This document shows, in pieces, positions 5,057-52,197 of a stretch of 64,000 nt of DNA. Numbering within the stretch: the stretch's first letter is position 1; every line of letters begins with the position of its first letter. Origin of the DNA: a virus; IMG/VR virus record IMGVR_UViG_3300046660_000367, positions 1 to 64,000 of that record. One strand, 5' to 3'. A program made the translations under genes and the position numbers. The notes beneath the pieces were generated by a model that saw only the letters and a list, made by a program, of their open reading frames with translations, had not been told where the DNA came from and did not search any database.

Positions 5057-5068
5057 AGAGAGCACCCC

Positions 5069-20000: not shown

Positions 20001-23000
20001 AATTGATTGACGAGCGCGACCGCGCCGCGAACGACGCCTACACCTTGCCGGCCGACGATACTTCGCCTGGCCAGTACGGTCAATACCAGCTGCCCGGTGG
20101 CGAAAACTACCGCGAGCTGCTGCTGACGCTGCCGCAGAAGGAGATCAGCACCGCCGACTTCCTGACCACGGACGCCAAAGGCGAGCCGTTTGGCGTGCAC
20201 GCAACCGAGGCGGAGGCGCGCAACGCGGCCCGTACCATTGGCGGCACCTACGAGGCTGGCGAGTCCATTTCGCGGGAGGCGGTCAAGTTCCAGTCGGCGC
20301 ACTGGACGGGGGTAGGCAACGTCCTCGCCCATGTGCGCTTCAACGACCGCATTGACGCCGATGGCCAGCGCGTGCTGTTCATCGAGGAGCTGCAGTCCGA
20401 TTGGCAAGCCGCCGGCAAGAGGCAGGGCTTTGGCGTGGCCGATGTGGAGAAGGAACGTGATCGCCTGCACGCGGCCGGCGATCCAGCCTGGGCGACAGTG
20501 TCCATCAGTAACGCCAGCAAGATCGCCCCGGCCCCGTTCGTCGGCAAGACCGAGGCCTGGCTGTCGCTCGCGGTCAAACGCATGATCTCCTACGCCGCGC
20601 AGAACGGCTACGACAAGGTGGCGTTCGTCAATGGCAAGCAGTCGGTGGAGCGCTACGACCTCTCCAAACAAGTTGCGCAGATTCGCTATGTCAAGCGCGC
20701 GGACGGCACGTATGACGTGTGGGCCGCCGACGAAAGCGGCCGCTCGCTGAACGACACCGTTGACAAGCAAGGACTGAAGCCTGAACAGGTCGAGGAATTC
20801 GTCGGCAAGGAAGTGGCCGAGAAGATCATCAACGGTGAGGGCCACAACGAGGATGGCGACATGGTGCTATCCGGCCTCGACCTGAAAGTCGGTGGCGAAG
20901 GCATGAAGACGTTCTACGACCGGATCGTGCCGAACGTGGTCAATGACGTGCTGAAAAAACTTGGCGGCGGCAAGCTGGGCACTGTCAACGTTGGCATCAA
21001 GGACGAGTCGCCCATCCCCCACTGGAAGACGAAGCAACCGGGCTTCGACCATTCGCGCATGATGATGCAGCCGCAGCCAGGCTTCGCCATCAGTGACGCC
21101 CTACGCGAGAAGGCGCAAGGCGGCTTGCCGCTGTTCAAGCGCGGAGAACAGCGTGCGCCGAACGGCAAAGCGTCGAACCTGCCCGCGCACCTGTGGCAGA
21201 AGGTGCGCACGCCGGAATTCAAGGCGTGGTTCGGCGACTGGGAAAAGGAGCCAGGCAAGGCATCGCAGGTGGTGGACGAGAACGGCGAGCCGCGCGTGGT
21301 CTATCACGGCACCAACGCCGACTTCACCGAGTTCGACAAGGCGAAAGTGCGCCTGCAAAGCCTGGGCGGCTTCTGGTTCGCCGAGCGCAACAACTATGTC
21401 GGCAACCTTCGGAGCGACCGGGAAGGCTTCAACCAGATGCCGGTGTTCCTGAATATCCGCCGCCCTGTTGACGGCAGCCGCTACGCGATGTTCCGCAACG
21501 GCGCCACCAGTAACGAGCAAGTGCAGCGGCAGTTCAAAATGAGCGGCAAGGACGGCGTACGCCTTGACAATGGCAGCGATTCGGTCTGGATCGCGCTGCA
21601 CCCCGAACAGATCAAGTCGGCCATCGGCAACAACGGCCAGTTCAACCAGGGCAACCCGAATATCCTGTTCTCGCGCAGCCCGGCCGATATCTCGCGCCAG
21701 GTTGGATCGACCATCAAGGCGCTGACTCTCACCCGCATCAAGAATAAGCTGATCGACTACGGGCGGATAGCATTGCAGTTCCTCGGCCGCCAGCAGCTGG
21801 TCGAAGTGTACGGCAACCTGTTCCCGCAAGGGACCAAGGACAGCCTGATGGTGCAGTACAACAAGCTGGCCATGCAGATGGACGCCGACAAGAACGACAC
21901 CAGCGCGCAGGCCGACACCATCGCCACCGATTGGGGCAAGCTGAAGGACCACCAGGCGCTGGCCGAACTGATGCACGACGCGACCCGCTTGCAGATCGAC
22001 CCGCGCAAGAAGTACGACCTGGGCGACATCAGGACCAACTACACCGATCTGCGCGCCCGCTACGAGGCGCTGTCGCCGGGTGCCAAGGCGATCTTCAACG
22101 AGGCGTCGGCAGCCTACGAGAAGCACTACGCCGCAGTGCGGGCGGCGGTGCACGACCGCATCGGCCGCGCCATGGTCGGCAACCCGAACCGCGCTTCGAT
22201 GCTGGCGCGCATGGATGCCGAGTTCTTCGGCAAGATCAAGGGCATCTACTTCCCGCTGGCGCGCTTCGGCGACTACATGGTGCAGGTGAACTGGCGCGGC
22301 GCCAATCCGAACCCAGCCATGGGACAGGCGCGCGAGGCGATCCACTTCGCCGAAACCATGAGCGAGGCGCAGGCCCTGCGCACCGAGCTGATGAAGGAAT
22401 ACCCGCCGGAAAAGGGCTATCAGGTGGCGCAGGTGACCCTGCGCGCCGAGTACAACGCGGCGCGCGATTCGGTTGGGCGCGGCTTCCTGCAGCAAATGTT
22501 CAACATGTTCAAGACAACCGGCATGGACCCATCCTTGCAGGATGCCATCAACCAGCTGTATCTGACCTCGCTGCCGGACCTGTCCTGGGCCAAGCATGGC
22601 ATCCACCGCAAGGGCACGCCCGGCTTCTCGCAGGATGCGCGCCGCGCCTTCGCCAACCACATGTTCCACGGTGCGCGCTACCTGGCCAAGCTGAACTATG
22701 CCGACCAGCTGGCGCAGGCGCTCGACGACATGCAGCATTACGTCAACGCGCACAACCAGGACGCCGGATACGATGCGGTCAAGGCGCAGCAGGTGGTTGA
22801 CGAAATGATCAAGCGGCACGACATTTACATGAACCCGAAGAACAATAAGCTGTCGAACTTGCTGACCTCGACCGGCTACGTGTTCTACCTGGGCCTGTCG
22901 CCGGCCTCGGCGGCGGTCAACCTGACGCAGACGGCGCTGGTGGCCTACCCGATCCTGGGCGGGCGCTACGGCTTCGGCAAGGCCGCCTCGGCGCTGCTGG

Positions 23001-24328
23001 CCGCCTCGCAGGACGCGGTGCGCGGCCACAACGACATGGGCAAGGTGCTTACCGGCGACGAGCTGCTTGCCTATGAGAACTGGATCAAGTCGGGGCTGGT
23101 CGATGTCACGCTGGCACACGACCTGACCAGCATCGCCGCCGGCAACGACAATGCGCTGCACGGCGCCATGGGCACGGCCATGAAATGGGCCTCGTTCATG
23201 TTCCACCACGCCGAGCGCTTCAACCGCCAGGCCACGGCGCTGGCAAGCTACCGGCTGGCGCGCGAGAAGGGCATGGACCACGACGCCGCCTACGCCGCCT
23301 CGGTGCAGGACACCTACGCGAGCCACTTCGATTACAGCTCAGGTAATCGTGCGCGTGTCATGCAGGGCGACGTGGCGCGCGTTGTGTTGTTGTTTAAACA
23401 GTACGCGCAGAACATGATCTACACCTTCGCCAGCAACGCGCTGCTGGCCATCAAGGGCGACCGCCAGGCCGCCAAGACCATCGCCGGCCTGTTGACGACC
23501 CACGCGCTGGCCGCTGGCGTGCTGGGCCTGCCGGTGGTGGGCATGCTGCTGGCCGCCGCTTCGATGATCGGCGGCTCGGACGACGATCCGTGGGACGCCG
23601 AGATCGCGCTGCGCAACCTGTTTGCCGACGCCTTCGGCGACAAGGCCGGCGAGGTGCTGGCACATGGCCTGTCGCGCCTGACGCCGTGGGACATTTCCGC
23701 GCGTGTCGGACTCAATTCGCTGCTGCTGCCGGACGTGCAGGAAGGGCTGGCCGGCGCACCCCTGGCCGAATCGTACTTGACCGGGTTGCTGGGCGCGGTG
23801 GCCGGCATGGCCGTGAATGCGTCCAAGGGCATCTATACCATTGCCCACAACGGCGACTGGCAGCGCGGGCTGGAGGAAATGATGCCGGCGTTCCTGCGCG
23901 GGCCACTGAAAACCCTGCGCTACGCCCAGGAGGGGATCAAGGACCGCACCGGCATCGAGCTGGTGCCGGAAACCACGTTCGCCGAGGAAGCCGGCCAGTT
24001 CCTCGGCTTCTCGCCGGGCCGCGGCCGTGAGGCGCAGGCGGGGAAAAGCGCGATCTACAAGACCGACAAGGCCTTGCAGCAGCGCCGCCAGCAGCTGATG
24101 AACGAATATGCGCACCACGTCATGCAGCAGGAAGACCCGACCAGCACCTTGCAGGCGATCCAGGCATTCAATGCGCTGCACCCGAGCCGCATGATCGCGC
24201 CGCTGCACTTGCAGCATAGCGTGCGCCTGCGCGTGCAGCATGTGGCGCAGGCCAAGGACGGCATTTTCTTGCCACGGTCGCGCAGCGATGCACGCGCCGC
24301 TGGCGCCTTCGCCGACGAAACCCCGTAA
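5069..24328 (+). CDS. 6419-aa DarB-like large polyvalent virion protein (degenerate SLT, C5-MTase-like, TGT-like, N6-MTase, SNF2 helicase, HExxH metallopeptidase, EExQSD domain, ART, PLxRFG C-terminal region)
   Basis: Motifs: LSLFDYTG/VPCTDF/LENPV (~9770-10350); VDTGAF/MPDVVG/VHVLGL/SADAN (~10630-11365); VLEPSMGIGNF and GNWPF (~14000-14220); HEVGTGKT, DEAH, QRNGRGWRQGN (~16050-17760); FHELYGH (~19160); FIEELQSDW (~20380); VYHGT...QIKSAIGNNG (~21300-21640); YFPLARFG (~22250). Confidence 0.92.
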   Translation: MPKNTDLGDFASIVPGAEPDLGEFATIVPKNRPSIIGSSIADLGRSLKTGVEQLPGMVTGLADIVPALATGTRPFTTAADWLGEQTGFQPGKWAKEQQFSPAYRQNQQEIQDAWKGVNAVSDDPHASNADYLRKLAADAPGIAAEYVKHPMYSLNQVTESLPSMIAGGAIGRAGVVAGRALPVAADAALGTAAKAAVPGYLERAVGNKVASEIAGGVGEGTVQAGQAMDQSEGSDQRKNAIAALGSGALDALIAGGAGHVAHKLGWETANTAMAQGFDHKLASGLSAAKRIAGGAASEGLLQEVPQSMQEQAWQNYADGKPLMQGVVQQGVEGGIAGAVMGAGANLRGGEAPPPPGGSTATPPANNPPGGSQGTPPATPPGPLTQAASLVPGARQQFPFGSIDLAQKQANSFTSDFGIPHQAVPHPSVPGKFAAVPVTVDGADALFVKEAERQGVDPAAAQLATHGDGGASLMTDLLAQHPELTAQQWSDPATRAQLAAAYLKQDIDALGEALGRAPTPAETYIGRQLGTTTAAELLNVPASERGMPVSSIISDPAVEDRLGLTGMPVGFVIDHLTQQADTTLATLKGNGNANLGTEVPAAGGATTGYDGGAAVGDAAGSGTVAGRPAAGTGAVAAGTPAAPGAAETGPDGAGAVAPRVQVGPTEDGFQNGNAQRHRDTADALGLTDTIERLFGDGLTVNQVVGQIQDKAPGVVPADLPNLVNGVRGTLGIPAPISPEGKGAFDAWRAEYKARGQQTKQQAAQQQDDLFPDVPDFPATPTPTGTTTSAESAAADTPATPDTQALPAWHDSPFAPRIHAMLDSLKEAGDTDMARSIEAGVEMDAKQGRLNEQNTAYREEKARIAVNTKAGEGKPPVPVAIAPETYDSLAGKINTIPALPRAIGEAAVARWNEIAPKLAALGFKDGEVDARHAPEARELQKQLKDISSALNGLAPRRYQVEREHKNVNPDAIEREENFATTVLGIDTRAHPGVNTDHRITLGQGVQTPTGTTTPAKEQIDLSDLIAQSTAAGTNDAGEALFENQRGTFRVRKDRKDQPDGYADFGGDLAPTAAAPADARLEYARTALHAHLGAAGELYQLDGVQHTKARQDVMSALMGTPVEKKEASVDALRAELYRRIGIVKGNALAKEMVFQQWYKDGGLVNVPQQGGHSEQYDNYRKAIEAGQASQGMAEQIAADERLNDGEDGELQDLIEAHAKGKSDAAHAAVVSDNGLGKPAKIDHARLTFAGASSGFTVSDDLKARVQQALRERPDAYKTGFYSQNNTRLKLPATKHTTNETGGQFQVKDDGSVMLLGDDGYGWYSTMSQKTVTRTLTDWLKNMGAESGKLDNGTAPEHARNEGKPLDPNNKFVPSDNGPVNELAPVDAGLVPLDMSVDEFASITNEFAALFAAPDTYVQTEKRVDPATVLHAPEPTPAGEGKWTMAPSKATLAALKEVENAPAQPLITMVEDTDARSTKEGKRHFRITANYTNRYDAAPMTQGAVMVGEQGEDNVSRDSGRVGTKQGLAGGVAEMKAMWLELESAILDQDKWIDHATEQAENSKLRQQNNQKIILSLFDYTGEWGQPWADAGYNVIPIDIQNGIDVHDLNAEYLYDEMGVEGDIHGMLIAVPCTDFAVAGAKHFAAKDADGRTESSKELVKASLSLVEELRPKFWALENPVSRIESLTGLPPARMSFNPNHFGHAYTKKTMLWGNFQTDLPLSPVDPVLGSKMHQKFGGSSQETKNARSETPRGFAAAFFMANNYADLTPEQRLTGDYPEASGAIATALKAGVPEDRVRELMEQTYENYDSEAARNALIKEVAALKEGTGDYAADEDADEDGPSALSASVPGTVDAPLKFHSGMSRPGDFSKLFAGHRNVGIEVGELSKVSVPKIAAAMANTNSHLFVDTGAFPIYQSNKLAFLDALKKQDFSDWKNEEMLSFDQILERYKSIQDAINEADDSGFAIERAYFVMPDVVGRQAESLALVGQYQGAINGFGDRAILPLQAGELTLTQAYESAMISLRKDPDHDFGPIVGIPSNKEAAPNDQLTDLLKKHGDRIAGVHVLGLFADTMLAPRLDAIRAAGFEGHVSADANRLRSLMYGTRTRGDAMDILLGQSAPESGAKNGGAPAPADTKPGLKKMQDAKAEKDAAKDAPAEAGQHSGTVGIDTLIERAEARLAEQRALQNAAVEDGNGNEWVYDKKIAAIEAQLADYQRARAELLAEDKPGLKKMQEAKAAKDAATLPETAAGQQGYRSALDGYRMSPPNNIRTNIDKAEWEKGWLAGEARRDALMEGAEPVVVGGRLASPTLNLQHELVWRDERSGKDYVSMDAARDGLTAADKQDKDFEAALPASEVVAVYHTKGGKLAMQIKRSMGRDGQPRYAYTGQYGAGSGHGEADMRTFVRQAKAAHPGMKLVSGQEFGEAAVPAAIDLDALLDDQLKAALSDLGDVLGDVFGGVKKMTGPQRTAGDLLPALSKVVELLIRKGLRSFQQAIGTAARAMRGNDKTAPFVDQITPRQWKAAYNAVAELHEGTDSEDSVNALSADEVTALTGVAPAASAERNEPAAPPASRRKAPGQARLRQDYGVKHIDGYTATDEFPHGPPGDIPSGGVKEAFRKDAMAYLKDIAGVLLDHGFTNFTNSSGKAMKAYSWNPGGPAVAGDAMLSMVHEGAGKGIYVNIAGDSMVGKPTASGVSVMMRVTTKENPTSSGMNLWPGADLSGQELADKIIKLVTGAPARTEKGDNQDNAKDDNGTRPEISNLGTPGIGEAGGEVAAGGRAGTRPAGPLGEKPAADDGAAGGNEGGAAAGPRPAGPGVSGIPAEPAGGNGADGRNGTGGTGLADAGTGVGGPAVGPARANYHIGDPEQLIGGTPKVRFAKNRAAIEAYRSITEEGRAPVKEDLDAMAAYIGWGSFGQELFKGTWERAAPKEGWASEDAWLRGHLGQQEWESAQRSIINAHYTDPVTVKTMWDMVRALGFTGGRVLEPSMGIGNFFAMMPLDLAEKSELTGIEMDTLSGGMAKELYPNANIQIKPYQDSKTVDGFYDLVIGNWPFAKDGPSDRRYMKLNPSLHDFFFLKALDQTRAGGLVVGITSAGTMDKKGRATRMEIAKKAELVAAFRLPAGAFEKYAGTFVTTDLIVLRKRAEPVAGSASWVELGETRVPAGETIEVNSYFLQHPDHVLGTLNFGRGLNGRPAMLVERPADLMARLAQLPGKMPPDTYSPAQGRKQVSYLTNNTADREGSVTLADGKLYVVRGERLMPLADVTSYQVKSKIETAAREAQIGKLIAMRNAYGALVTAERAADSNTEALRKDLHRQYLAFVKAYGSLEASDGMRILRNVKDPFYSALASLEIDGKPARILKEATLRGRKKLANPSVRDAFVMARNESMDVDLSTIAKLSNKTEAEVASELEGADAIFKTPAGNYEVADIYLSGNVRRKLREAQDAQANAPAGQVSADFARNIAALEKVLPKTVPYFKIEAKLGAPWIKAEHYQGYVARLLGLTRDEDKAAVEVRMVNGSWKVKFTDHSLNNRPEATTQWGTFHMAARLDRMLTAAMNNRSITVKYKDDDGNMQVDEAATKEVSEKLVKLREEFGNWVWKDAERRVWLEENYNEVMNAIATPNFDGSFLDFNGMTLRRGDDPFSLRQHQVDAIWRGLVNGRGLYAHEVGTGKTYTMAGLAVESRRYGLAKKPLIFAHNANSASVAKEFNDMYPAARVLYLDNLAPADLDVRMRQIANDDWDAVVVPHSLISRFALTAQTLNELAAEDIAAMEQEAMDAAEDDNVHLTLAMMDDEKEMKKVRSATAKDLVRARNKIIKSMQDMALKSSKEDAVSFEDLGVDMVIVDEAHEFKKPPVATKMKMRGLNTGTSNMSIALRFLTDYVKRENNGRGIHLFTGTPITNTLTELYNMMRYVMDDVMARDGIKDWDSWFNTFADSTTDVELTAAGEYEAVTRLASFVNTAELRRISGEFMDIVFADDMPEFKPRQTASGKILTDELTDVEREELLNGRSENPVGRPYKQIIVDVAPMGLEQKQMLDNFKRLAKEFKEASKQRRREIVQSGHPANPVLVETGAANAGMDPRLVDMNAKDEPNSKVNRVARNVAALYHEDARATQVVFLERGFTDEGTKTKSNGDGTKTVTKVRKFNLVKDMVAKMVAAGVKESEIAVVDGSVSKEKRKEIADAMNKSQIRVVIGLTKTLGVGVNMQENLRAMHHVDAPWMPGELEQRNGRGWRQGNKWNTVREYRYITERLDGRRWQVLAVKDRFIKLFLKADENTRIIDGDAVEMEEGDGGDLAATLSEAAGDPRVLVREKLKADIEKLENRERQHTYALTDAAEMMRRLAQANAGMTETLPKLQADSAQYEAGRGNFSATIGGEQYTERGAADEAIDAIIEGLDKNVGQRQIGTMHGFKLTLHRGIGGFYVDIRGQHQFEAWTPSVSSIESAMRKLAKTAAEYQQKIEDNKASIGRMAEMQKEPFGQAALLEKKRKMLADLIADLARNPEPAPAWLRHGAPANTAIYVNGQQRVVEGHKSDKDGYFIVTEEGDVPYLDATDAAGMPIYDPVDGDVRDERPPLDLTGTPAEPARLQRREDDRKRRESDPLFARAENDEAGAVAQNGKTPIISDTDFAAVIDRVKAAFAKRAGGALTVSIKPVRGMDDLPPALQEAARRQQLDLGKGVYFENTVYVVQQAHSTAEEVEKTIFHELYGHAATATLFGDEWVAKQNALLKAIGGGAGLYRIAAANQINLHAYADGLAADTTLTDAQRSASMMDELLAHMAGKKTVLRQKINEFIGAVRAWLRAHGFAKLAEYGNTDLAHLLAEGRRSLAAKATGKAGPAMPVFARDPDHAPVFYSTLTRQIDKTVTKSASPLHWAETIMGTSFAQQGVKQDEIQWSGVLDWLAMQQEAGVKKVDKAQLLDYLAENGVRVSETMQGEPAPASEEGLAQRKAVFDQYQPQIDALRQRAEDYKSPSREMDEARDEWAELIDERDRAANDAYTLPADDTSPGQYGQYQLPGGENYRELLLTLPQKEISTADFLTTDAKGEPFGVHATEAEARNAARTIGGTYEAGESISREAVKFQSAHWTGVGNVLAHVRFNDRIDADGQRVLFIEELQSDWQAAGKRQGFGVADVEKERDRLHAAGDPAWATVSISNASKIAPAPFVGKTEAWLSLAVKRMISYAAQNGYDKVAFVNGKQSVERYDLSKQVAQIRYVKRADGTYDVWAADESGRSLNDTVDKQGLKPEQVEEFVGKEVAEKIINGEGHNEDGDMVLSGLDLKVGGEGMKTFYDRIVPNVVNDVLKKLGGGKLGTVNVGIKDESPIPHWKTKQPGFDHSRMMMQPQPGFAISDALREKAQGGLPLFKRGEQRAPNGKASNLPAHLWQKVRTPEFKAWFGDWEKEPGKASQVVDENGEPRVVYHGTNADFTEFDKAKVRLQSLGGFWFAERNNYVGNLRSDREGFNQMPVFLNIRRPVDGSRYAMFRNGATSNEQVQRQFKMSGKDGVRLDNGSDSVWIALHPEQIKSAIGNNGQFNQGNPNILFSRSPADISRQVGSTIKALTLTRIKNKLIDYGRIALQFLGRQQLVEVYGNLFPQGTKDSLMVQYNKLAMQMDADKNDTSAQADTIATDWGKLKDHQALAELMHDATRLQIDPRKKYDLGDIRTNYTDLRARYEALSPGAKAIFNEASAAYEKHYAAVRAAVHDRIGRAMVGNPNRASMLARMDAEFFGKIKGIYFPLARFGDYMVQVNWRGANPNPAMGQAREAIHFAETMSEAQALRTELMKEYPPEKGYQVAQVTLRAEYNAARDSVGRGFLQQMFNMFKTTGMDPSLQDAINQLYLTSLPDLSWAKHGIHRKGTPGFSQDARRAFANHMFHGARYLAKLNYADQLAQALDDMQHYVNAHNQDAGYDAVKAQQVVDEMIKRHDIYMNPKNNKLSNLLTSTGYVFYLGLSPASAAVNLTQTALVAYPILGGRYGFGKAASALLAASQDAVRGHNDMGKVLTGDELLAYENWIKSGLVDVTLAHDLTSIAAGNDNALHGAMGTAMKWASFMFHHAERFNRQATALASYRLAREKGMDHDAAYAASVQDTYASHFDYSSGNRARVMQGDVARVVLLFKQYAQNMIYTFASNALLAIKGDRQAAKTIAGLLTTHALAAGVLGLPVVGMLLAAASMIGGSDDDPWDAEIALRNLFADAFGDKAGEVLAHGLSRLTPWDISARVGLNSLLLPDVQEGLAGAPLAESYLTGLLGAVAGMAVNASKGIYTIAHNGDWQRGLEEMMPAFLRGPLKTLRYAQEGIKDRTGIELVPETTFAEEAGQFLGFSPGRGREAQAGKSAIYKTDKALQQRRQQLMNEYAHHVMQQEDPTSTLQAIQAFNALHPSRMIAPLHLQHSVRLRVQHVAQAKDGIFLPRSRSDARAAGAFADETP
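6840..7034 (+). CDS. Nested +1-frame gene (64 aa) overprinted inside the giant ORF
   Basis: GAAGGGGA RBS at 6826-6833; the nested frame uses CTG/CCG/GCG/CAG codons while the host frame shifts to A/T-ending codons (GGA, ACT, GCT, CCT) and a G/A/T-rich linker over this interval. Confidence 0.72.
   Translation: MPTWEPKYLPLEAPLLDMMVAQLWVTQQEVELWLDDLLPEPALSQLEHRLHLARLKLDLTVPVQ
13314..13661 (+). CDS. Nested +1-frame gene (115 aa, TnpV-like helical protein) overprinted immediately before the N6-MTase domain
   Basis: AAGGA RBS at 13304-13308; GC3-rich codons in the nested frame while the host frame is a G/A/P-rich linker; HWARNRPQMMARLE...AEQDWLMLEPE resembles TnpV-like proteins. Confidence 0.8.
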   Translation: MELDLKFLTWVRRESAKLAEKWPLGGERERDLLAHWARNRPQMMARLEAMKVAPQLAHVLLDREYQAFQQNLRAGMGPTDATEQAEQDWLMLEPESEDQPLDLPEPITTSETPSS

Positions 24329-35124: not shown

Positions 35125-35760
35125 ATGCAAAGGTTTCCAAAATTCAAACGTGCCATGAAACCTATCCTGCCATCCACGCCCCCTGTTCTCAAGACGCGAC
35201 GCGGTGATATCGTGTACGAGTCTAATCCCTTTCTGAAGGGGGCTGTGGCCAACACCAATCGAGGGGTTAAGCGCATCACCAGCCAAGACAGCGAACGTAT
35301 GCTTGTCGTTAGCGAAAAGAGCGGCGAGGTGCTGGGCGGGGCTGGGTTCTGGCAAACCAAGCAAGTCGATAAGACCCAATTCATCAAGCTATACGTCAAC
35401 GGCGTCAAGGGCCTGGCCGACTTGACCAGCGCTGGCACCAAGTTGTTCGGCGTCCTTTACATGGAAATGCAGAAGCAGATGGGTGAGGATCAAATCTTCC
35501 TTAGCCACACGCATCTGGACAAGGCGATCTTTCCCGATTTGAGTCCGGCAACCTTTTCGCGCGGCGTGCGCGAATTGAAGGACAAGAATTTCATTGCGCC
35601 CATGATGACGCAGGGCTGGTTTTTTGTGAACCCCGATTTCATCTGGAACGGCGACCGCCTGGCGTTCGTGCAGGAGTACCGCCTGCGCGACCAGGACCGG
35701 ACGCCTGCCCCCGGCCCTGTTGAGGCTGTCACTCACACCGACACGGACGAAGAAGAATGA
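35125..35760 (+). CDS. RepL-family (wHTH) plasmid replication initiator
   Basis: VDKTQFIKLY, LSPATFSRGVRELKDKNFI, GWFFVNPDFIWNGDR; start codon uncertain. Confidence 0.82.
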   Translation: MQRFPKFKRAMKPILPSTPPVLKTRRGDIVYESNPFLKGAVANTNRGVKRITSQDSERMLVVSEKSGEVLGGAGFWQTKQVDKTQFIKLYVNGVKGLADLTSAGTKLFGVLYMEMQKQMGEDQIFLSHTHLDKAIFPDLSPATFSRGVRELKDKNFIAPMMTQGWFFVNPDFIWNGDRLAFVQEYRLRDQDRTPAPGPVEAVTHTDTDEEE

Positions 35761-36287
35761 GAGTCAACGCGCATAAGCGAAGTGCGCTCCTGGCGTCGAA
35801 GATGATCATCGGCGCCTCGCCGACGCCCGAGACCGAGCAGCAGCTGCGCAGCGAGCAAGGCTATCCGCCTGATGCGGAAGTGACCATGTCAGTGTTCGAG
35901 GTCGAGATCGACAACACCATCCGCTACTGCTGCTGGTCTGGCGGCGCGCTGATCCCTGACCCCGACGGCTCGGGCCACCCCGTTCCGCACCTGACGCCTG
36001 CCGGCGTCGGCGCGTGCGAAGCGCTGCTGCGTCTGCCGTACCTGTACGGCCCCGACGGTGAATTTCTGCACACCTTGGTCTTTCACGGCATCGCCGTAGG
36101 TAAGACGCCGCTGCGCGACAAGGTCATATCCGCGTTTCGTATGACGGCCGATGTCAACGCGGTGATCTGTTTCGTCGGCGACCTGGCCAAAGAGCTGAAC
36201 GGCAAGATGGGCGTTACCTTCAACGTCTGTGACGCCGTGCCGATCGGCGAGATCGCCGGCATGCGCCGGCCTGGCGAGTCCCGTTAG
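35757..36287 (+). CDS. Hypothetical protein coupled to rep
   Basis: ATGA overlap; good codon usage. Confidence 0.7.
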   Translation: MRVNAHKRSALLASKMIIGASPTPETEQQLRSEQGYPPDAEVTMSVFEVEIDNTIRYCCWSGGALIPDPDGSGHPVPHLTPAGVGACEALLRLPYLYGPDGEFLHTLVFHGIAVGKTPLRDKVISAFRMTADVNAVICFVGDLAKELNGKMGVTFNVCDAVPIGEIAGMRRPGESR

Positions 36288-36301: not shown

Positions 36302-36646
36302 TCAGCTGCCAGTTGTAGCCGCGACTTCGGGGAACAGCCAGCCGGGCAAGTGGTTCTGTTCATACACCATCGCCACGTCAACCAGCGCATCGAGCAGCGC
36401 TTCCTCGGCTGGCGTGAGCGCAGCTTCGGGCAGGTCCATCAGCTCACTGATCTCGCCCATGATGACGTCGTACAGCGGTGGCAGCGGCAGCGCATTGGCG
36501 TCATCTGGTCGGCGCAGGCTGCGCGCACGCCGGGCCGCCGGCGCCTTCGCGGCCGTCAGCTCGGCGATTTTGCTCTCGGCCGCCTGCAGCGCGGCCAGCG
36601 CCTCGATGTGGGATAGCTCGCACAGTGGCTTCGGCGTATTAGTCAA
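36302..36646 (-). CDS. Protein containing a HigA antitoxin N-terminal-like segment, no HTH
   Basis: YDVIMGEISELMD...TPAEEALLDALVDVAMVYEQNH. Confidence 0.5.
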   Translation of the reverse strand: MTNTPKPLCELSHIEALAALQAAESKIAELTAAKAPAARRARSLRRPDDANALPLPPLYDVIMGEISELMDLPEAALTPAEEALLDALVDVAMVYEQNHLPGWLFPEVAATTGS

Positions 36647-36951
36647 GGCGCCGTTCTCCTAATTAGGAACTGCGTGCGGTCCTGGTCCTTCAGCCAGATC
36701 GGCGGGGCGCCCTGGCCGGTCCAGGTCTTGCCGGTGAGCGGGTCAGCGTACAGTGCTTCCTTTTTCGGCCGAATACGCACCGGCGGTTTCAGCACCAGGC
36801 CGAGGTCGGTGGCGCCGATGCTGTAGTCGGCCATCATGGTCTTGATCTGCGCGATGGCGTCACCGCGCCCCTCCATAATGAGCAGGGCGGCGCGCGCTTG
36901 CAGGTCGGCGATCTGTTTCTGAATTTGTTGTACTTCGCTCACGGTACTCAT
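36643..36951 (-). CDS. H-NS family nucleoid protein
   Basis: N-terminal coiled coil and YADPLTGKTWTGQGAPPIWL DNA-binding motif. Confidence 0.92.
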   Translation of the reverse strand: MSTVSEVQQIQKQIADLQARAALLIMEGRGDAIAQIKTMMADYSIGATDLGLVLKPPVRIRPKKEALYADPLTGKTWTGQGAPPIWLKDQDRTQFLIRRTAP

Positions 36952-37190
36952 GGTGCGCTTTCATCCCTATTCGCTAAGGCGACAGGCACGCCGCCGCGTG
37001 TTTTCGTCCCCCACGGCGCGCGCGGCTTCGCTTCAAGGTCGGCCATGGTCATGCCGGCGTCCTGCATCAGGGCCAGTATCTGCTGGGTGGCCTGGGTGCG
37101 CGCCATCCGTTGGGCGTCCAGCGCTTCTTCCTCCAGCCGGCTGATCTCGGCGCGCAGTTTGCGGTAGTGGGCAAGGTAATCGATTTCCAT
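36948..37190 (-). CDS. Truncated H-NS-like protein (oligomerisation region only)
   Basis: YRKLRAEISRLEEEA...QILALMQDAGMTMADL; no TWTGxG motif. Confidence 0.7.
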   Translation of the reverse strand: MEIDYLAHYRKLRAEISRLEEEALDAQRMARTQATQQILALMQDAGMTMADLEAKPRAPWGTKTRGGVPVALANRDESAP

Positions 37191-37281: not shown

Positions 37282-37530
37282 TTAGTGTTTGGCGGCGTGC
37301 CGTTGCCGCAGCTTATCGAGCTTGCCCGAGGACACCTCGAATCCGTCGCCGAAGGCGCTCAGGTATTGTTGGAACGTCGCCTCATCGGGTAGGTTATTGT
37401 GCACAATCTGGCTGATGGCCAGCCCGCCAGCGATGTAGCCGAATACATGCATCGAATCTAGCGGGGGCAGCTCCAAGTGTTTCGCCAGTTCGGCAATCGC
37501 GCGCAGGAAGGCCGCTTGTTTCTCGTTCAT
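37282..37530 (-). CDS. Hypothetical protein
   Basis: ATGA overlap; plausible helical protein. Confidence 0.6.
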   Translation of the reverse strand: MNEKQAAFLRAIAELAKHLELPPLDSMHVFGYIAGGLAISQIVHNNLPDEATFQQYLSAFGDGFEVSSGKLDKLRQRHAAKH

Positions 37531-37859
37531 GGCAGCGTCCTTTGTATGGTTTCCCACAGCGCACACGCGGCTTGCGCGGCCTGGCGCCGGGACATGCCGG
37601 GCGGGTCTTCTTCGGTGCCGCCGAAGCAGCTGCAGCGCCGCAGCTGGTGGCCAACTGAACCGATCACGCCGCGCATGCGGCACTCGTAATGGGTCACCTG
37701 GTCGGCACCATCGATGGTGCCGATGTCGCCCTCGGCGATCGCTTCCCCGCACAGCAGGCAGGCCTGCCCAATCGGCGGTGCGACCTGGCGTTCGTAGTCC
37801 TTCATCATGTGGGCCGGGCCGAAGAAGCCGATGGCGAAAGGGAAATCGTCGTCGCTCAT
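37527..37859 (-). CDS. Zn-binding hypothetical protein
   Basis: CLLC...HYEC...HQLRRCSC. Confidence 0.65.
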   Translation of the reverse strand: MSDDDFPFAIGFFGPAHMMKDYERQVAPPIGQACLLCGEAIAEGDIGTIDGADQVTHYECRMRGVIGSVGHQLRRCSCFGGTEEDPPGMSRRQAAQAACALWETIQRTLP

Positions 37860-38089
37860 GGGAATTTCCTGGTGAAGGTGGCGCTGCGGCGGTAGCACTT
37901 GGCGCTGCTGTCGTACTCCATGTTGGCTGGCGCCGCCTGTTGATAATGGCTGATATCGTAGCTGGCCTGCGGCGTCGAAATGCCGTAGAAGTCCTCGATG
38001 ACGACGCGGTTGAGGGTGCCGTAGTAGTCGAGGACCATGTCGATGAAGCGCAGGCGCGCAAGCTGCGCCGCGTTGTTCGGGCCGGTCAT
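37856..38089 (-). CDS. Stand-alone CapW/BrxR-type winged-helix domain (no WYL domain)
   Basis: RLRFIDMVLDYYGTLNR..I..FYGISTPQASYDI..Y...AP.NMEYD.SAK.Y. Confidence 0.8.
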   Translation of the reverse strand: MTGPNNAAQLARLRFIDMVLDYYGTLNRVVIEDFYGISTPQASYDISHYQQAAPANMEYDSSAKCYRRSATFTRKFP

Positions 38090-38262
38090 GGCGACTCCTT
38101 ACGTCGGGCGGTCAACGCCCACGCCCACGCGCACACGCCAGCGCAGCCAAGCGAGAACGCGCCGAACAGGTACGACCACCAGCCGGCCGGCTTGCACAGG
38201 TCGTGGACGGCGCAGGCCAGGTTGAGGACAACACCGACAATGGATAGGCGCTTCACGTTCAT
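38086..38262 (-). CDS. Small 2-TM membrane protein
   Basis: 58 aa, ATGA overlaps on both sides, hydrophobic. Confidence 0.55.
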   Translation of the reverse strand: MNVKRLSIVGVVLNLACAVHDLCKPAGWWSYLFGAFSLGCAGVCAWAWALTARRKESP

Positions 38263-43849: not shown

Positions 43850-44345
43850 CCGCCCCCTTGTTTAATGTGATGACAAAAAGGAAGTATCTCATACGAATAT
43901 GTGCAATGCAATGCTAATCATACAAATGTCGATCTGTATTGATAGGCATTAATCCACATAAGATAGGTTAAATTAGATTAATAGCAATTAAGTTAATGCT
44001 GAATACAATAAGTCACAGTTAATCGGCATTAATCTCATTAATGCCGATGAATATCATTTTAAATAAATTGGACCGATATAAGACAACATAATTTTAATTA
44101 GCATTGCATTTATTGCATTAGTTTAATGTAAGTCTAATTTAATTGGTGCTGATCTATAGTAAACAACATAAGCTAACATTATGCACTCCAACATAAATGT
44201 AATTGGTGTTGATAAGCACTAATTAGATTAAATTTAATTTGTGCAAATTTGATCAAAGTTAATCAGTGCTGATTACAATTGCACAAACTTATACTTGTAT
44301 GTGCAACTTTGTGCTATTTTGTGCAAAAAGTTGCACTAATGCCAT
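43850..44345. repeat. AT-rich array with ~10-bp periodicity upstream of parA (candidate centromere/operator)
   Basis: Phased TTAAT/ATAAG/TGAT units; TAATTGGTGYTGAT twice 60 bp apart; 12-bp IR at 44022-44048; repeated TGTGC/TGCAC at 44240-44336. Confidence 0.7.
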
Positions 44346-44818
44346 TATGTGTTTGCCACGGTGAGCAGGCGGCGCAGGGCGCTGTAGTTGGCAATTGACA
44401 GCCCGTTGGCCGGGTCGGTGAGTATCCAGCGCGGGCCGTGCATGTCGTCTATATCGAGGATATCGTCCACGATGGCATAGGTGATGACCTCCGGGTGGGC
44501 GGCCAGCCAGGCGGCGATCTCCATGGCGCGGGTGCCGGTGACGTTGATCGGCGTCACGTCCATGATCGGCAGGTCGAAGGCGTTGGCGGCCTCGTGCGCG
44601 GTGCAGGTGTAGCGCCAGTCCGACGACAGGACGACCGAGCAGCCGGTCTCGCGGCACAGGCGCCGCACCAGGCCGATGGCGACATGGTCGAACTTGGCCA
44701 TGTCGCCGGGCCGGAACGAGTGCGGAAAGCCACCGAACGCCATCTGGCTGCGGCCGCTGTTCAGGACGCCGTCGATATCGAGGAATAGGACCTTGAGGCC
44801 GGGTTTAGCTGTTGACAT
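44345..44818 (-). CDS. HAD-superfamily phosphatase (Swiss-army-knife RNA-repair type)
   Basis: FLDIDGVLN, VVLSSDWR, EIAAWL..HP....YAIVDD. Confidence 0.88.
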   Translation of the reverse strand: MSTAKPGLKVLFLDIDGVLNSGRSQMAFGGFPHSFRPGDMAKFDHVAIGLVRRLCRETGCSVVLSSDWRYTCTAHEAANAFDLPIMDVTPINVTGTRAMEIAAWLAAHPEVITYAIVDDILDIDDMHGPRWILTDPANGLSIANYSALRRLLTVANT

Positions 44819-49487: not shown

Positions 49488-50132
49488 TCAGGCGAAGGTA
49501 CTCTGCGCCACGATCACCCGGCCGAGGACCGGCGGCAGCTGGTCCGGCTGGTAGGTTTCGGGCGCTGTCGCCGGCTGGTCGGTGCGCAACTCGATGCTGC
49601 CGTCGGCGCGCATGAACACGCGCCGCACCAGCAGGCCGTGGGCCGTTTGGAACACGTAGATTTTTGACGACACCAGCGTCTTGTCGGCGGCATGGACGAG
49701 CAGCTGGTTTCCCAAGGACATGCTGCTGTCATTGGAGATAACGACCACGCAGTCGCTTGCGCGAGCGCCCAGGTCGGTCAGCAAATCCTTGCGATACGCA
49801 TACGTATCCTTGCCGTCAAGGTGATCGACGACCTCATCATGGTAGTTCACGGTGGGACCCTTTTTGAACGCCTCTGCATACCGGGGTATGAAGGCATATT
49901 TATCGTTGGGGTCCACGTTAGCACTAATTCCAAGGGTCAAGTATTCGACCGTCGTTTTTAATGCGTCGGCGACTTTTTTTGTGAGGTGGCGGCGTGGCGC
50001 TGTGCCTTTTTGGTCTTCCGGCAGCTCCCACAGCAGCACCGTTTGACGCGAGACACCGACCGTGTCGGCCAACTCCTGGGGCGACAGCTTGAGTTCCAAG
50101 CGGCGCTCTTTAATTCTCGAATGTATGTCCAT
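49488..50132 (-). CDS. CI-like repressor (XRE HTH plus S24-like domain)
   Basis: RIKERRLELKLSPQELADTVGVSRQTVLLWE; C-terminal DSSM...VRRV...VLGRVI; flanked by operator triplets. Confidence 0.9.
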   Translation of the reverse strand: MDIHSRIKERRLELKLSPQELADTVGVSRQTVLLWELPEDQKGTAPRRHLTKKVADALKTTVEYLTLGISANVDPNDKYAFIPRYAEAFKKGPTVNYHDEVVDHLDGKDTYAYRKDLLTDLGARASDCVVVISNDSSMSLGNQLLVHAADKTLVSSKIYVFQTAHGLLVRRVFMRADGSIELRTDQPATAPETYQPDQLPPVLGRVIVAQSTFA

Positions 50133-50216: not shown

Positions 50217-50804
50217 ATGATAAAGATATCCAAGCGCATCCAAGACATCATCCGCTCCCGCGAGTGGGTCGCACTGGACACCGTCGCCAAGCACGCTGGG
50301 TCGAAATCGGCCCTCGGCGACCTGTTTGGTGTGAGCTACCAGGCGGTGCAGAGTTGGTACAGGAACCGCGTGCCGTTGCAGCACTGCCCGATCATGGAGA
50401 CCATGACACGCGGCGCAGTGCAGTGCGAACAGCTGCGCGCCGATTACAGCAAGCTGTACGAGCGGCCATACCGCAAGGCGCACAACATTTACCGCGCCGG
50501 CGATCCGCCACGCATCTACATCGCCGGCCCGATGACAGGCTACCCGGAGCTGAACCATCCCGCCTTCCACGCCGAGGCGGCCCGCCTGCGCGCCGCCGGC
50601 CTGAACGTGGTCTGCCCAGCCGAGGTCACGCTGGACGGCAATCCCACCTGGTTCGACTACATGCGCGCCGATCTGCGTCTGATGATGCAGTGCAGCACCA
50701 TCTGCCTGCTGCCAGGCTGGCGCCGCTCGAAAGGCGCACGCATTGAATACTTCATCGCCAAGTGCCTCGGCTTCGAGGTGATGGTCGCCGGGGAATTGGC
50801 ATGA
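50217..50804 (+). CDS. Cro/YdaS-like HTH fused to a DUF4406 (nucleoside deoxyribosyltransferase-like) domain
   Basis: AGSKSALGDLFGVSYQAVQSW..RVP..C...E..T.G.V....LR.D then IYIAGPMTG...LPGW..SKGA..E; start uncertain. Confidence 0.8.
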   Translation: MIKISKRIQDIIRSREWVALDTVAKHAGSKSALGDLFGVSYQAVQSWYRNRVPLQHCPIMETMTRGAVQCEQLRADYSKLYERPYRKAHNIYRAGDPPRIYIAGPMTGYPELNHPAFHAEAARLRAAGLNVVCPAEVTLDGNPTWFDYMRADLRLMMQCSTICLLPGWRRSKGARIEYFIAKCLGFEVMVAGELA

Positions 50805-51232
50805 AGCGCAGCGGCCCGCTCAAGCGCAGCACCCCGATGCAGCGTAGCCCGATGGCCCCGCCGAAAACGGGTGCGCCGGCCAAAGGCGCCAAGCCGAAGC
50901 GGGCCAAGAAACTGACCTCACACGAGCGCCCGGTCAGCGCCGCCGAGAAGGCGCTGTGGGACCGTATGGCCAGCGAGATCGGCTGCATCGCCTGCCGCGT
51001 GGCCGGCCGCGCCACCAGCGAGTACGTGTCGATCCACCACATTGACGGGCGCACCCGTCCTGGTTGCCACCTGCTGGTGCTGCCGCTGTGTGCTGGTTGC
51101 CACCAGCAGGGCACCGGCAACGACAAGAGCCTGGTCGCGGTGCACCCGAACAAAGCCCGCTTTGAAAAGCTGTACGGCAGTCAGCTCGAACTGCTCGACA
51201 TGATCCACGCTATCCTCGGAATGCAGCCATGA
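50801..51232 (+). CDS. Ref/DUF968-like HNH nuclease
   Basis: GCIACR...IHHIDG...LPLCAGCHQ. Confidence 0.85.
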   Translation: MKRSGPLKRSTPMQRSPMAPPKTGAPAKGAKPKRAKKLTSHERPVSAAEKALWDRMASEIGCIACRVAGRATSEYVSIHHIDGRTRPGCHLLVLPLCAGCHQQGTGNDKSLVAVHPNKARFEKLYGSQLELLDMIHAILGMQP

Positions 51233-52197
51233 CCGACAACGATTTGCTCGACCCGAACGTCCCACTGCACTGCCTGCGCCTCGATGGCGGCACGCAGTCG
51301 CGCGCTGCCATGGATGACGCCGCGATCGCCGAATACAGCGAGGCGATCCGCCAGGGCGCCACGCTGCCGCCGCTGATCGTGTACTACGACAGTGTCGATT
51401 TCTGGCTGGCCGACGGTTTCCACCGCTACCACGCCTACCGCGCCGCCGGCGTGGAACAGGTGATGACCGATGTGCGCACCGGCTCCAAGCGCGACGCAGT
51501 GCTGTTTTCGGTCGGCGCCAACGCCGCGCACGGCCTGCGCCGCACCAACGAGGACAAGCGCCGCGCGGTTGAAACGTTGCTGGCCGATGCCGAGTGGGCG
51601 GCGTGGACTGACGTTGCCATCGCCAAGGCATGCGGTGTTTCGTCGAACTTTGTGGGTGATGTACGCCGTCACATTAATCCGATTAATGTGACGACATCAG
51701 CCGAGCGCACTTACACCACCAAGCACGGCACCACGGCCACGATGAAAACGGCCAACATCGGCAAGGCCAAGCCGGCAGAGCCGCCCGCTACCGAAGCATC
51801 GGACCCCGCCACGGATGCGCCGCCCGATCCGGTCCTGGCCAAGGCTCGTCCTGTAGAAATCCCAGGGCGCTTGGCCGCCGCCGAACCGGACGGCCCGGCC
51901 CCTGCCGAACTGGACGCGCTGCGCGCCGAAAACGCTGCCCTGCTCGCGGAGCTGGACGACCTGAAGGCCGATCTCGCCGAAACGCTGGCCGACAACGAAA
52001 TGATGGGGCGCGTGTTCGACGCCGACGACAAGGTCAAGGCCTCGATGGATGAAGCGCGCCGCCAGAAGGCGCTGGCCGACAACGCCGAGCGCACGTTGGC
52101 AGCTCGCTCGCAGGAGTTCAACGAGCGCGCGCGCAATGTTGTGTACTGGAAGAAGCGCGCCGAGAAAGCCGAGCGCGAGCTGGAAAAGGCGGCCTGA
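51229..52197 (+). CDS. ParB/Srx N-terminal domain protein with HTH and coiled coil
   Basis: TQSRA...LPPLIVY...WLADGFHR; WTDVAIAKACGVS. Confidence 0.8.
   Translation: MTDNDLLDPNVPLHCLRLDGGTQSRAAMDDAAIAEYSEAIRQGATLPPLIVYYDSVDFWLADGFHRYHAYRAAGVEQVMTDVRTGSKRDAVLFSVGANAAHGLRRTNEDKRRAVETLLADAEWAAWTDVAIAKACGVSSNFVGDVRRHINPINVTTSAERTYTTKHGTTATMKTANIGKAKPAEPPATEASDPATDAPPDPVLAKARPVEIPGRLAAAEPDGPAPAELDALRAENAALLAELDDLKADLAETLADNEMMGRVFDADDKVKASMDEARRQKALADNAERTLAARSQEFNERARNVVYWKKRAEKAERELEKAA

Follow-up and report, generated by a model that had tools for sequence, protein, structure and literature searches.

CapW and BrxR are repressors with a WYL domain. Repressors of this type control the CBASS (cyclic-oligonucleotide-based antiphage signaling system) and BREX (bacteriophage exclusion) systems and many other defense islands, and single-stranded DNA (ssDNA) leads to their release. 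The counter-defenses known from phages are mostly aimed at the defense proteins or at their signals. Structures are available for CapW of Pseudomonas aeruginosa (PDB 7TB5), Stenotrophomonas maltophilia (SmCapW, 7TB6), and Rhizobium leguminosarum (9C5G), as well as for BrxR (7QFZ and 7T8K/7T8L). The DNA studied here is the IMG/VR virus record IMGVR_UViG_3300046660_000367, of which the first 64 kb (positions 1 to 64,000) are referred to as the window. The source record has 98,275 bp, assembles as a circle because of a 127-bp terminal overlap, and is 100% complete according to CheckV. The DNA-binding head of CapW/BrxR, a winged helix-turn-helix (wHTH), is the entire product of a 77-aa gene on the minus strand of the window. 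This phage wHTH is a member of a stand-alone WHD_BrxR group (hereafter the short group) which is detected by domain databases. This phage family is widespread and may keep host defense operons shut.

The gene (table 1) is coupled to its neighbors at both ends. Its ATG (38089-38087) shares an ATGA with the TGA of the upstream 58-aa open reading frame (ORF), its TGA (37858-37856) shares a second ATGA with the ATG of the downstream Cys-rich ORF, and it is preceded by a strong Shine–Dalgarno sequence. The AlphaFold2 model of the protein, obtained with a 56-sequence alignment, showed a predicted local distance difference test (pLDDT) score of 93.9 and consisted of three helices and a two-stranded wing. 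A six-frame search through the full 98 kb of the phage genome gave no WYL domain (PF13280), and as a control the domain was recovered in 9 out of 14 reference genomes. An earlier note on this DNA had described a complete 77-aa ORF with coupled start and stop, which matches the N-terminal wHTH of CapW/BrxR and lacks the WYL domain. This description holds, since ATGA overlaps are found at both ends together with the Shine–Dalgarno sequence, the protein stops at residue 77 with PF13280 unmatched in the whole genome, and the similarity to CapW, in sequence and in predicted structure, is far above what chance would give.

In detail, phmmer matches against the PDB sequences were limited to CapW and BrxR. 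The best one was CapW 7tb5 (E = 1.7e-14; query residues 9-77 on residues 24-92 of 299), followed by CapW 7tb6 (8.6e-10) and 9c5g (2.3e-8) and by BrxR 7qfz (1.3e-4) and 7t8k (0.02). The profile of the short family matched 7tb5 at 2e-22. In the Foldseek search with the AlphaFold2 model, the top 14 places were CapW and BrxR chains, and all other winged helices were located at E > 0.01. The root-mean-square deviation (rmsd) was 0.5 Å over 69 columns for 7TB6, with 40% identity, and 0.6 Å for 7TB5. The domain PF26109 (WHD_BrxR) is assigned to the 77-aa protein by a large protein database and by the ESM Atlas. Local scans with Pfam, PHROGs, NCBIfam, and PADLOC gave no matches, but the Pfam set scanned did not contain PF26109 and thus the Pfam result is not evidence against homology.

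The phage wHTH and CapW share the winged-helix fold (40-47% identity over ~70 residues, rmsd of 0.5-0.6 Å), the recognition helix S-x-P-Q-A-S-x-D, and the Arg for DNA binding (SmCapW R32, i.e., R28 of the phage protein). SmCapW no longer binds its operator when it carries R32A or S42A/Q45A/S47A (PMC9122588). At the aligned positions, the window protein (P0001) has R28/S38/Q41/S43, with conservation in the short group of 0.98/0.90/0.78/0.72, respectively, and Thr adding 0.22 at the last position. The equivalent stretch makes base contacts in the BrxR-DNA crystal structure, where the contact positions (the SRQQ motif and a wing Lys) align with the recognition helix and the wing of the phage protein (PMC9122589). 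DNA binding is very probably retained, because the DNA-contact residues of CapW are kept and the base-contact stretch of BrxR is equivalent. BrxR also shares the fold (template modeling (TM) score ~0.89, 28-30% identity), but it is further off than CapW (E = 1.3e-4 and 0.02 vs. 1.7e-14). Its key specificity residue R38 corresponds to T39 of the phage wHTH, which is a variable position.

On the contrary, everything that follows the wHTH in the known repressors is missing. CapW has linker helices, a WYL sensor, and a WCX domain, whereas the phage wHTH is without all three and hence without ssDNA sensing. None of the known CapW dimer contacts is left, and all BrxR domains downstream of the wHTH are absent. 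The fixed residues of helix 1 differ from those of CapW, with the two forms on opposite sides of the main split of the domain tree (see below). CapW/BrxR repressors bind a palindrome of ~20 bp as homodimers and are placed beside the defense operon which they control, with the operator covering its promoter, whereas the phage wHTH lies inside a phage early operon, flanked by small ORFs. Consequently, the phage wHTH should not be filed as CapW or BrxR, since it fails in three respects: the WYL domain, the dimer scaffold of linker and WCX, and the place beside a defense operon.

An exhaustive profile search of 1.84 billion representatives returned 1734 matches at the threshold of E ≤ 1e-3, of which the 152 top representatives were analyzed. 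Of the 152, 41 are full-length and 56 stop at the wHTH boundary, with 46 of the latter sharing one profile column. A maximum likelihood tree of the domain, rooted at midpoint only, was constructed from the 150 top-scoring hits to a profile of short proteins. In this tree, 50 of the 56 short proteins, including the window protein, were split from all 41 full-length proteins with support of 100/99. The members of the short group have ~65-85 residues, typically ~75, and the domain reaches their C-terminus. Their stop column follows F-x-R-x-(W/F/Y)-P, and the window protein ends with FTRKFP. The short proteins are a distinct, diverse, and mainly phage-borne group. Their clusters in the large protein database are tiny, unnamed, and metagenomic, and full-text literature searches, together with term searches within the CapW and BrxR papers, gave no description of phage-encoded winged-helix-only CapW/BrxR proteins.

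The positions which differ between short and full-length proteins are on and just after helix 1, plus one in the tail. Trp at position 7 (88% of full-length proteins) is Tyr or Ala in the short group, Glu at 14 becomes Arg, Arg at 19 (83%) becomes Leu, and Trp at 22 (100%) is replaced by His, Gln, or Tyr. Likewise, Glu at 23 becomes Tyr, Asp at 30 (83%) becomes Ala or Val, and Pro at 74 (83%) becomes Arg (84%). The signature of the short group comprises R14, R74, hydrophobic and aromatic residues at 19 and 23, respectively, and the lack of Trp at 22; the window protein has R14, V19, Y22, Y23, and R74. The surface changes of the short group probably mark linker and sensor contacts of the full-length proteins.

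A word-index search showed no longer relatives of the protein, which reflects its limit of sensitivity, as the exhaustive search did find them. A 6161-aa repeat protein (P0004), the top "hit" with no matched stretches, was rejected as a composition artefact. A metagenomic protein of 206 aa (P0117) lacks a WYL domain and carries a tandem of two divergent winged helices of the CapW/BrxR type. This hints that the working unit of the WYL-less forms may be a winged-helix pair.

In the scans of IMG/VR, the short form was found in 8 out of 9 and in 48 out of 52 viral loci, and 42 of the 48 short viral copies share the common stop column. The short form is carried by contigs as small as a few kb and as large as the jumbo-phage contigs of 310-315 kb, with proviruses among them. 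One cultured phage has it, Stenotrophomonas phage Sonora, in which the protein gp088 is annotated as hypothetical. In the ESM Atlas, there are at least 16 clusters, each of at least 50 members, of 69-82-aa proteins with WHD_BrxR only, and several of these clusters are mostly viral. In bacterial contigs (one genome per species), all 80 kept matches were full-length, mostly from Alphaproteobacteria. Among 301 genomes of the order containing Xanthomonas, all 21 places were in longer frames (two of them of 163 and 253 aa, respectively, and the other 19 of 297-364 aa), and in 293 plasmid records almost all among the matches listed are annotated as WYL proteins. This comparison of bacteria and viruses is based on pattern-seeded scans and sampled genomes, and absence of the short form means that it was not found in those searched. 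An unannotated Burkholderia match (H18) proved to be a full-length gene of 332 aa and not a short form. Full-length CapW-like genes, in ~300-aa frames with WYL, were also seen in IMG/VR (L010/L139, L142, and L146). Moreover, one nearly identical CapW-like sequence type recurs in many genomes of Alphaproteobacteria, which suggests a mobile element.

The explanation put forward here is that the phage wHTH, being signal-blind, would occupy the operators of host WYL-type defense repressors or similar sites. As a whole it is held tentatively, with a probability below one half. In CapW, ssDNA on the WYL domain sends a signal via the linker, the winged helices spread, and the DNA is released (PMC11662680); WYL-domain mutants act as constitutive repressors (PMC9122588). 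Expression of the phage wHTH would start early, its gene being part of the leftward early operon of a phage which is temperate or a phage-plasmid, and double-stranded DNA would be bound through the recognition helix and the wing, as in CapW/BrxR. Release of CapW by ssDNA depends on the linker, WYL, and WCX domains, and since the phage wHTH has none of these, it would not respond to the ssDNA signal. With the operators of host WYL-type repressors, or sites like them, occupied in this way, CBASS-, BREX-, and similar operons would stay shut while replication or prophage induction yields ssDNA. The helix-1 changes by which the short group is set apart (loss of W7/W22 and the replacements R19L, E23Y, and D30A/V) may form a new self-association surface in place of the dimer contacts. 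As a guess, the hydrophobic residues at 19, 23, and 30 could be the surface that rescues binding to a palindrome.

Repression of this kind would matter to a phage, as the block to lambda prophage induction is due in part to CapW-driven expression of CBASS (PMC11662680) and de-repression of BrxR primes immunity (bioRxiv 10.1101/2025.11.13.688357). Shut defense operons would be of benefit to a phage whose repressor is of the S24 type and presumably responds to DNA damage; the chain from ssDNA release to phage benefit is one that we infer. The adjacent H-NS-like genes (see below) would fit the same theme, since H-NS is reported to silence immunity loci (bioRxiv 10.64898/2026.09.05.749240).

Several described proteins resemble the phage wHTH in part, and the sensor-dead CapW mutants (WYL-domain mutants, PMC9122588; S158E/R200A, PMC11662680) are the laboratory analogue of its proposed function, as their DNA binding is kept and the ssDNA response is lost, so that the operon stays off. 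However, these mutants are full-length dimers on their own operator, whereas the phage wHTH is without sensor and dimer scaffold. With the small helix-turn-helix autoregulators of the Aca type, which belong to anti-defense operons of phages, it would have in common that both are small phage DNA-binding proteins among accessory early genes. The Aca-type proteins are found beside their own promoter/operator and anti-CRISPR genes; the phage wHTH, on the other hand, is located mid-operon, has no constant neighbor, and its fold is specifically WHD_BrxR. Truncated H-NS antagonists of the H-NST type keep the oligomerization domain and have lost DNA binding. They may be compared to the phage wHTH as single domains of a host regulator on a mobile element, but the halves would be opposite, as the phage wHTH keeps DNA binding and loses sensing and dimerization.

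A number of results weigh against the occupation of host defense operators. With the dimerizing parts of CapW/BrxR missing, a monomer is expected to bind a palindrome only poorly, given that the affinity of the CapW dimer itself is no better than 0.3-1.5 μM (PMC9122588). It is also unlikely that a single small protein silences many operons, since WYL repressors reportedly work side by side in the same cell with no crosstalk (bioRxiv 10.1101/2025.11.13.688357). In the tree, the short proteins make up one old group and are not nested among the host regulators, as repeated or recent captures would be. Sonora gp088 is no closer to the CapW of S. maltophilia than to that of P. aeruginosa, which speaks against host-matched mimicry by gp088. 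Palindrome scans of the phage's own genome and of related and carrier loci revealed no operator for the phage wHTH, and in the 98-kb genome no palindromic operator was found near its gene. When ORFs within 3 kb were clustered for ~50 loci, no known anti-defense gene was a regular neighbor. In favor of the explanation, diverged tandem copies occur in L002 (see below) and, compared with the related phage L003, the wHTH has the highest nonsynonymous divergence (dN, 0.29) and the highest ratio of nonsynonymous to synonymous divergence (dN/dS, 0.69) among 11 syntenic genes scored, a set which leaves out the Cys-rich gene, but this lead is modest with neighbors at 0.61-0.62.

Because of these points, an ordinary phage transcription factor is rated nearly as likely. 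Such a protein would bind sites in its own genome or in non-defense host genes and time the expression of early, middle, or accessory genes, and it would share ancestry with CapW/BrxR with no role at defense operons. The old and coherent short group with signature residues of its own suggests an own function rather than mimicry, and small DNA-binding proteins are common in phage early regions. Furthermore, the recognition-helix positions 39, 44, 47, and 48 vary between close phages, as in immunity-type regulators, and in one locus (L008) the wHTH is the first gene after an intergenic region of ~430 bp. It fits less well that the window gene and the Sonora gene both lie in the middle of an operon, where they overlap each flanking gene by 4 nt and have no promoter region next to them, or that the sole recurrent palindrome is neither near the gene nor kept in the other loci scanned. 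The carriers are also unrelated (41-66 kb contigs, ~100-kb phage-plasmids, and 310-315 kb jumbo contigs), with the gene in varied positions and no constant neighbor. An accessory role in partition or replication of a phage-plasmid, with the winged helix on a centromere-like or origin site, has only a slight chance of being correct. In locus L006, the wHTH is positioned between a ParA gene and a ribbon-helix-helix (RHH) gene with overlapping codons, in the window phage the operon of the wHTH also includes ParA with an RHH-like partner, 5 kb upstream, and TubR-type segregation proteins are winged helices, although their Foldseek match is weak (TM score 0.57). Yet ParA is not among the neighbor families listed for at least 4 of the ~50 loci, and the family is also present in the 310-315 kb jumbo contigs and in phage Sonora, of which the fetched 9-kb stretch is without an annotated partition gene.

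The free winged helix could also act at the protein level, as a decoy which docks on the WYL/linker surface of a host regulator and disturbs the regulator or its ssDNA sensing. The domain-swapped architecture of the known repressors, with the wHTH packed on the opposite WYL (PMC9122588, PMC11662680, PMC9122589), and the superposition of the phage protein on the CapW wHTH at 0.5-0.6 Å are in agreement with docking. Nevertheless this role is improbable, as the residues fixed in full-length proteins (W22 100%, W7 88%, R19 83%, and D30 83%), on the assumption that they face the linker and WYL, are replaced in the short group, where the DNA-contact residues are by contrast kept. Moreover, a displaced DNA-binding head would de-repress defense and harm the phage. 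The least probable of all, to the point of being hardly credible, is a non-functional remnant, either a truncated pseudogene of a captured capW/brxR or one half of a split gene with its WYL elsewhere. Six of the 56 proteins ending at the wHTH boundary group among full-length relatives and may indeed be fragments; the window protein, however, is inside the well-supported short group. When a full-length CapW relative (P0033, 304 aa) was compared with the phage genome, the match was confined to its own residues 21-94, and residues 95-304 had no match in the complete 98-kb genome. Similarly, no WYL domain was found in five other viral records with a short copy, four of which are at least 90% complete. 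Split-gene and decayed-gene readings are ruled out by these WYL and CapW searches of the phage's own genome and of the five carrier genomes. A remnant is equally at odds with the strong Shine–Dalgarno sequence, the coupled start and stop, the stop position kept in 42 of 48 viral copies, the conserved synteny, and a dN/dS of 0.22 between L107 and L108 (the same contigs as L002 and L003, respectively). The one-off pseudogene fragment, which the earlier note had considered fatal to its proposal, is excluded by the large phage-borne family with its fixed C-terminus, the lack of a WYL partner, and the lack of a decayed remainder.

A wider proposition is that phages carry a dedicated transcription-level class of counter-defense, composed of signal-blind heads of WYL repressors, sometimes alongside H-NS-like silencers and with a new dimerization through helix 1; this is rather unlikely at present. 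If true, the class would hold host defense islands shut when replication or prophage induction raises the ssDNA alarm, and a defense operon kept off by a phage protein would be a different layer of the arms race. The short proteins are small and easily expressed candidates, and the cultured member Sonora gp088 makes the idea directly testable, as phage Sonora infects S. maltophilia, a species with a structurally characterized CapW. Even without an anti-defense role, the family indicates that the DNA-binding head of a regulator can persist for long as a separate phage protein.

The order of the membrane-helix ORF, the wHTH, the Cys-rich ORF, and the H-NS pair is kept in the related phages L002 and L003. 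Among the shared genes of these phages, the wHTH is the least conserved (64-65% identity vs. 74-100% for the others). In the 101-kb phage L002, two tandem wHTH-only genes with a shared start/stop junction are located at 9786-10231, with 51% and 64% identity to the window protein. This tandem pair could form a heterodimer or provide two DNA specificities. No neighbor of the wHTH-only genes was constant across the ~50 loci. The Cys-rich family is near them in six loci, including the more distant viral contigs L110, L129, and L132, and H-NS-like genes are near them in five. For instance, H-NS-like genes adjoin wHTH-only genes in the distant contigs L109 (5603-5956) and L113 (two copies at 5054-6004). 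Upstream of the wHTH in the jumbo contig L004 is a gene which, judged by eye only, resembles an RNA ligase. The intergenic regions adjoining the wHTH in L004, L007, and L008 showed no convincing operator, and the one of L004 has a terminator-like hairpin.

The window phage is temperate and has the wHTH gene in a leftward early region like that of lambda, as indicated by the cI-like repressor, SSB, NinB, ParA, and an XRE regulator, all upstream and in the same orientation (table 1). The phage is probably a phage-plasmid. The closest match of its helicase is from an Acidovorax phage (58% identity). In the same operon as the wHTH, the 80-aa H-NS paralogue resembles a truncated H-NS antagonist. 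It was matched by PF22470 (E = 8.8e-5, below the curated cut-off) and by phrog_10171 (E = 5e-8), and a functional link to the wHTH is one that we infer. The Cys-rich ORF had no Pfam or PHROG match.

Table 1. Features of the window around the stand-alone wHTH gene, with residue numbers for elements of the 77-aa protein
Feature	Position	Strand	Remarks
Stand-alone CapW/BrxR-type wHTH gene	37856..38089	-	77 aa plus stop
Predicted helices of the wHTH protein	H1 7-23, H2 28-35, H3 39-52 (residues)		H3 is the recognition helix
Predicted wing strands of the wHTH protein	57-60 and 65-68 (residues)		
C-terminal tail of the wHTH protein	F72-x-R74-x-F76-P77		
Shine–Dalgarno AAGGAG	38095..38100	-	Consensus; 5 nt upstream of the ATG at 38089; direct reading of the sequence
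58-aa ORF	38086..38262	-	Two predicted membrane helices; upstream of wHTH
Cys-rich ORF (CxxC...HYxC...CSCxG)	37527..37859	-	Downstream of wHTH
80-aa H-NS paralogue	36948..37190	-	H-NS N-terminal (coiled-coil oligomerization) region only; 0.7 kb downstream of wHTH, same operon
102-aa H-NS-like protein	36643..36951	-	With C-terminal DNA-binding domain
cI-like repressor (HTH_3 + Peptidase_S24)	49488..50132	-	Head of the leftward early region containing wHTH; context only
6419-aa polyvalent protein	5069-24328	+	Single ORF; SNF2/Helicase_C/ResIII motifs in the middle third

No clear enrichment of palindromes was seen in the 98-kb genome. The only recurrent one, CATTAAT-N3-ATTAATG, has two perfect copies (44027-44043 and 51672-51688), both away from the wHTH gene and one of them upstream of parA. 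It is AT-rich in a genome of ~64% GC, and it was not found in the fetched stretches of L002, L003, L004, L006, L007, L008, and L091. It is probably an operator or a centromere-like site for another regulator.

The large polyvalent protein of the window carries, in addition to the motifs of its middle third, ART-PolyVal (ADP-ribosyltransferase) and LPD39 in the last third, and its first 2310 residues had no Pfam match. This protein points to a heavy investment in counter-defense. Inside the minus-strand operon, two plus-strand ORFs of 211 and 176 aa (35125-36287) had no Pfam match; they lie in a low-GC stretch of 54% GC at 34-36 kb. A 157-aa protein (44345-44818, minus strand) contains HAD_SAK_2 of the "Swiss Army Knife" RNA-repair proteins (E = 2.5e-25). 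A Ref-like RecA-dependent nuclease (PF16786, E = 2e-24) is encoded at 50762-51232 on the plus strand, where the rightward region starts.

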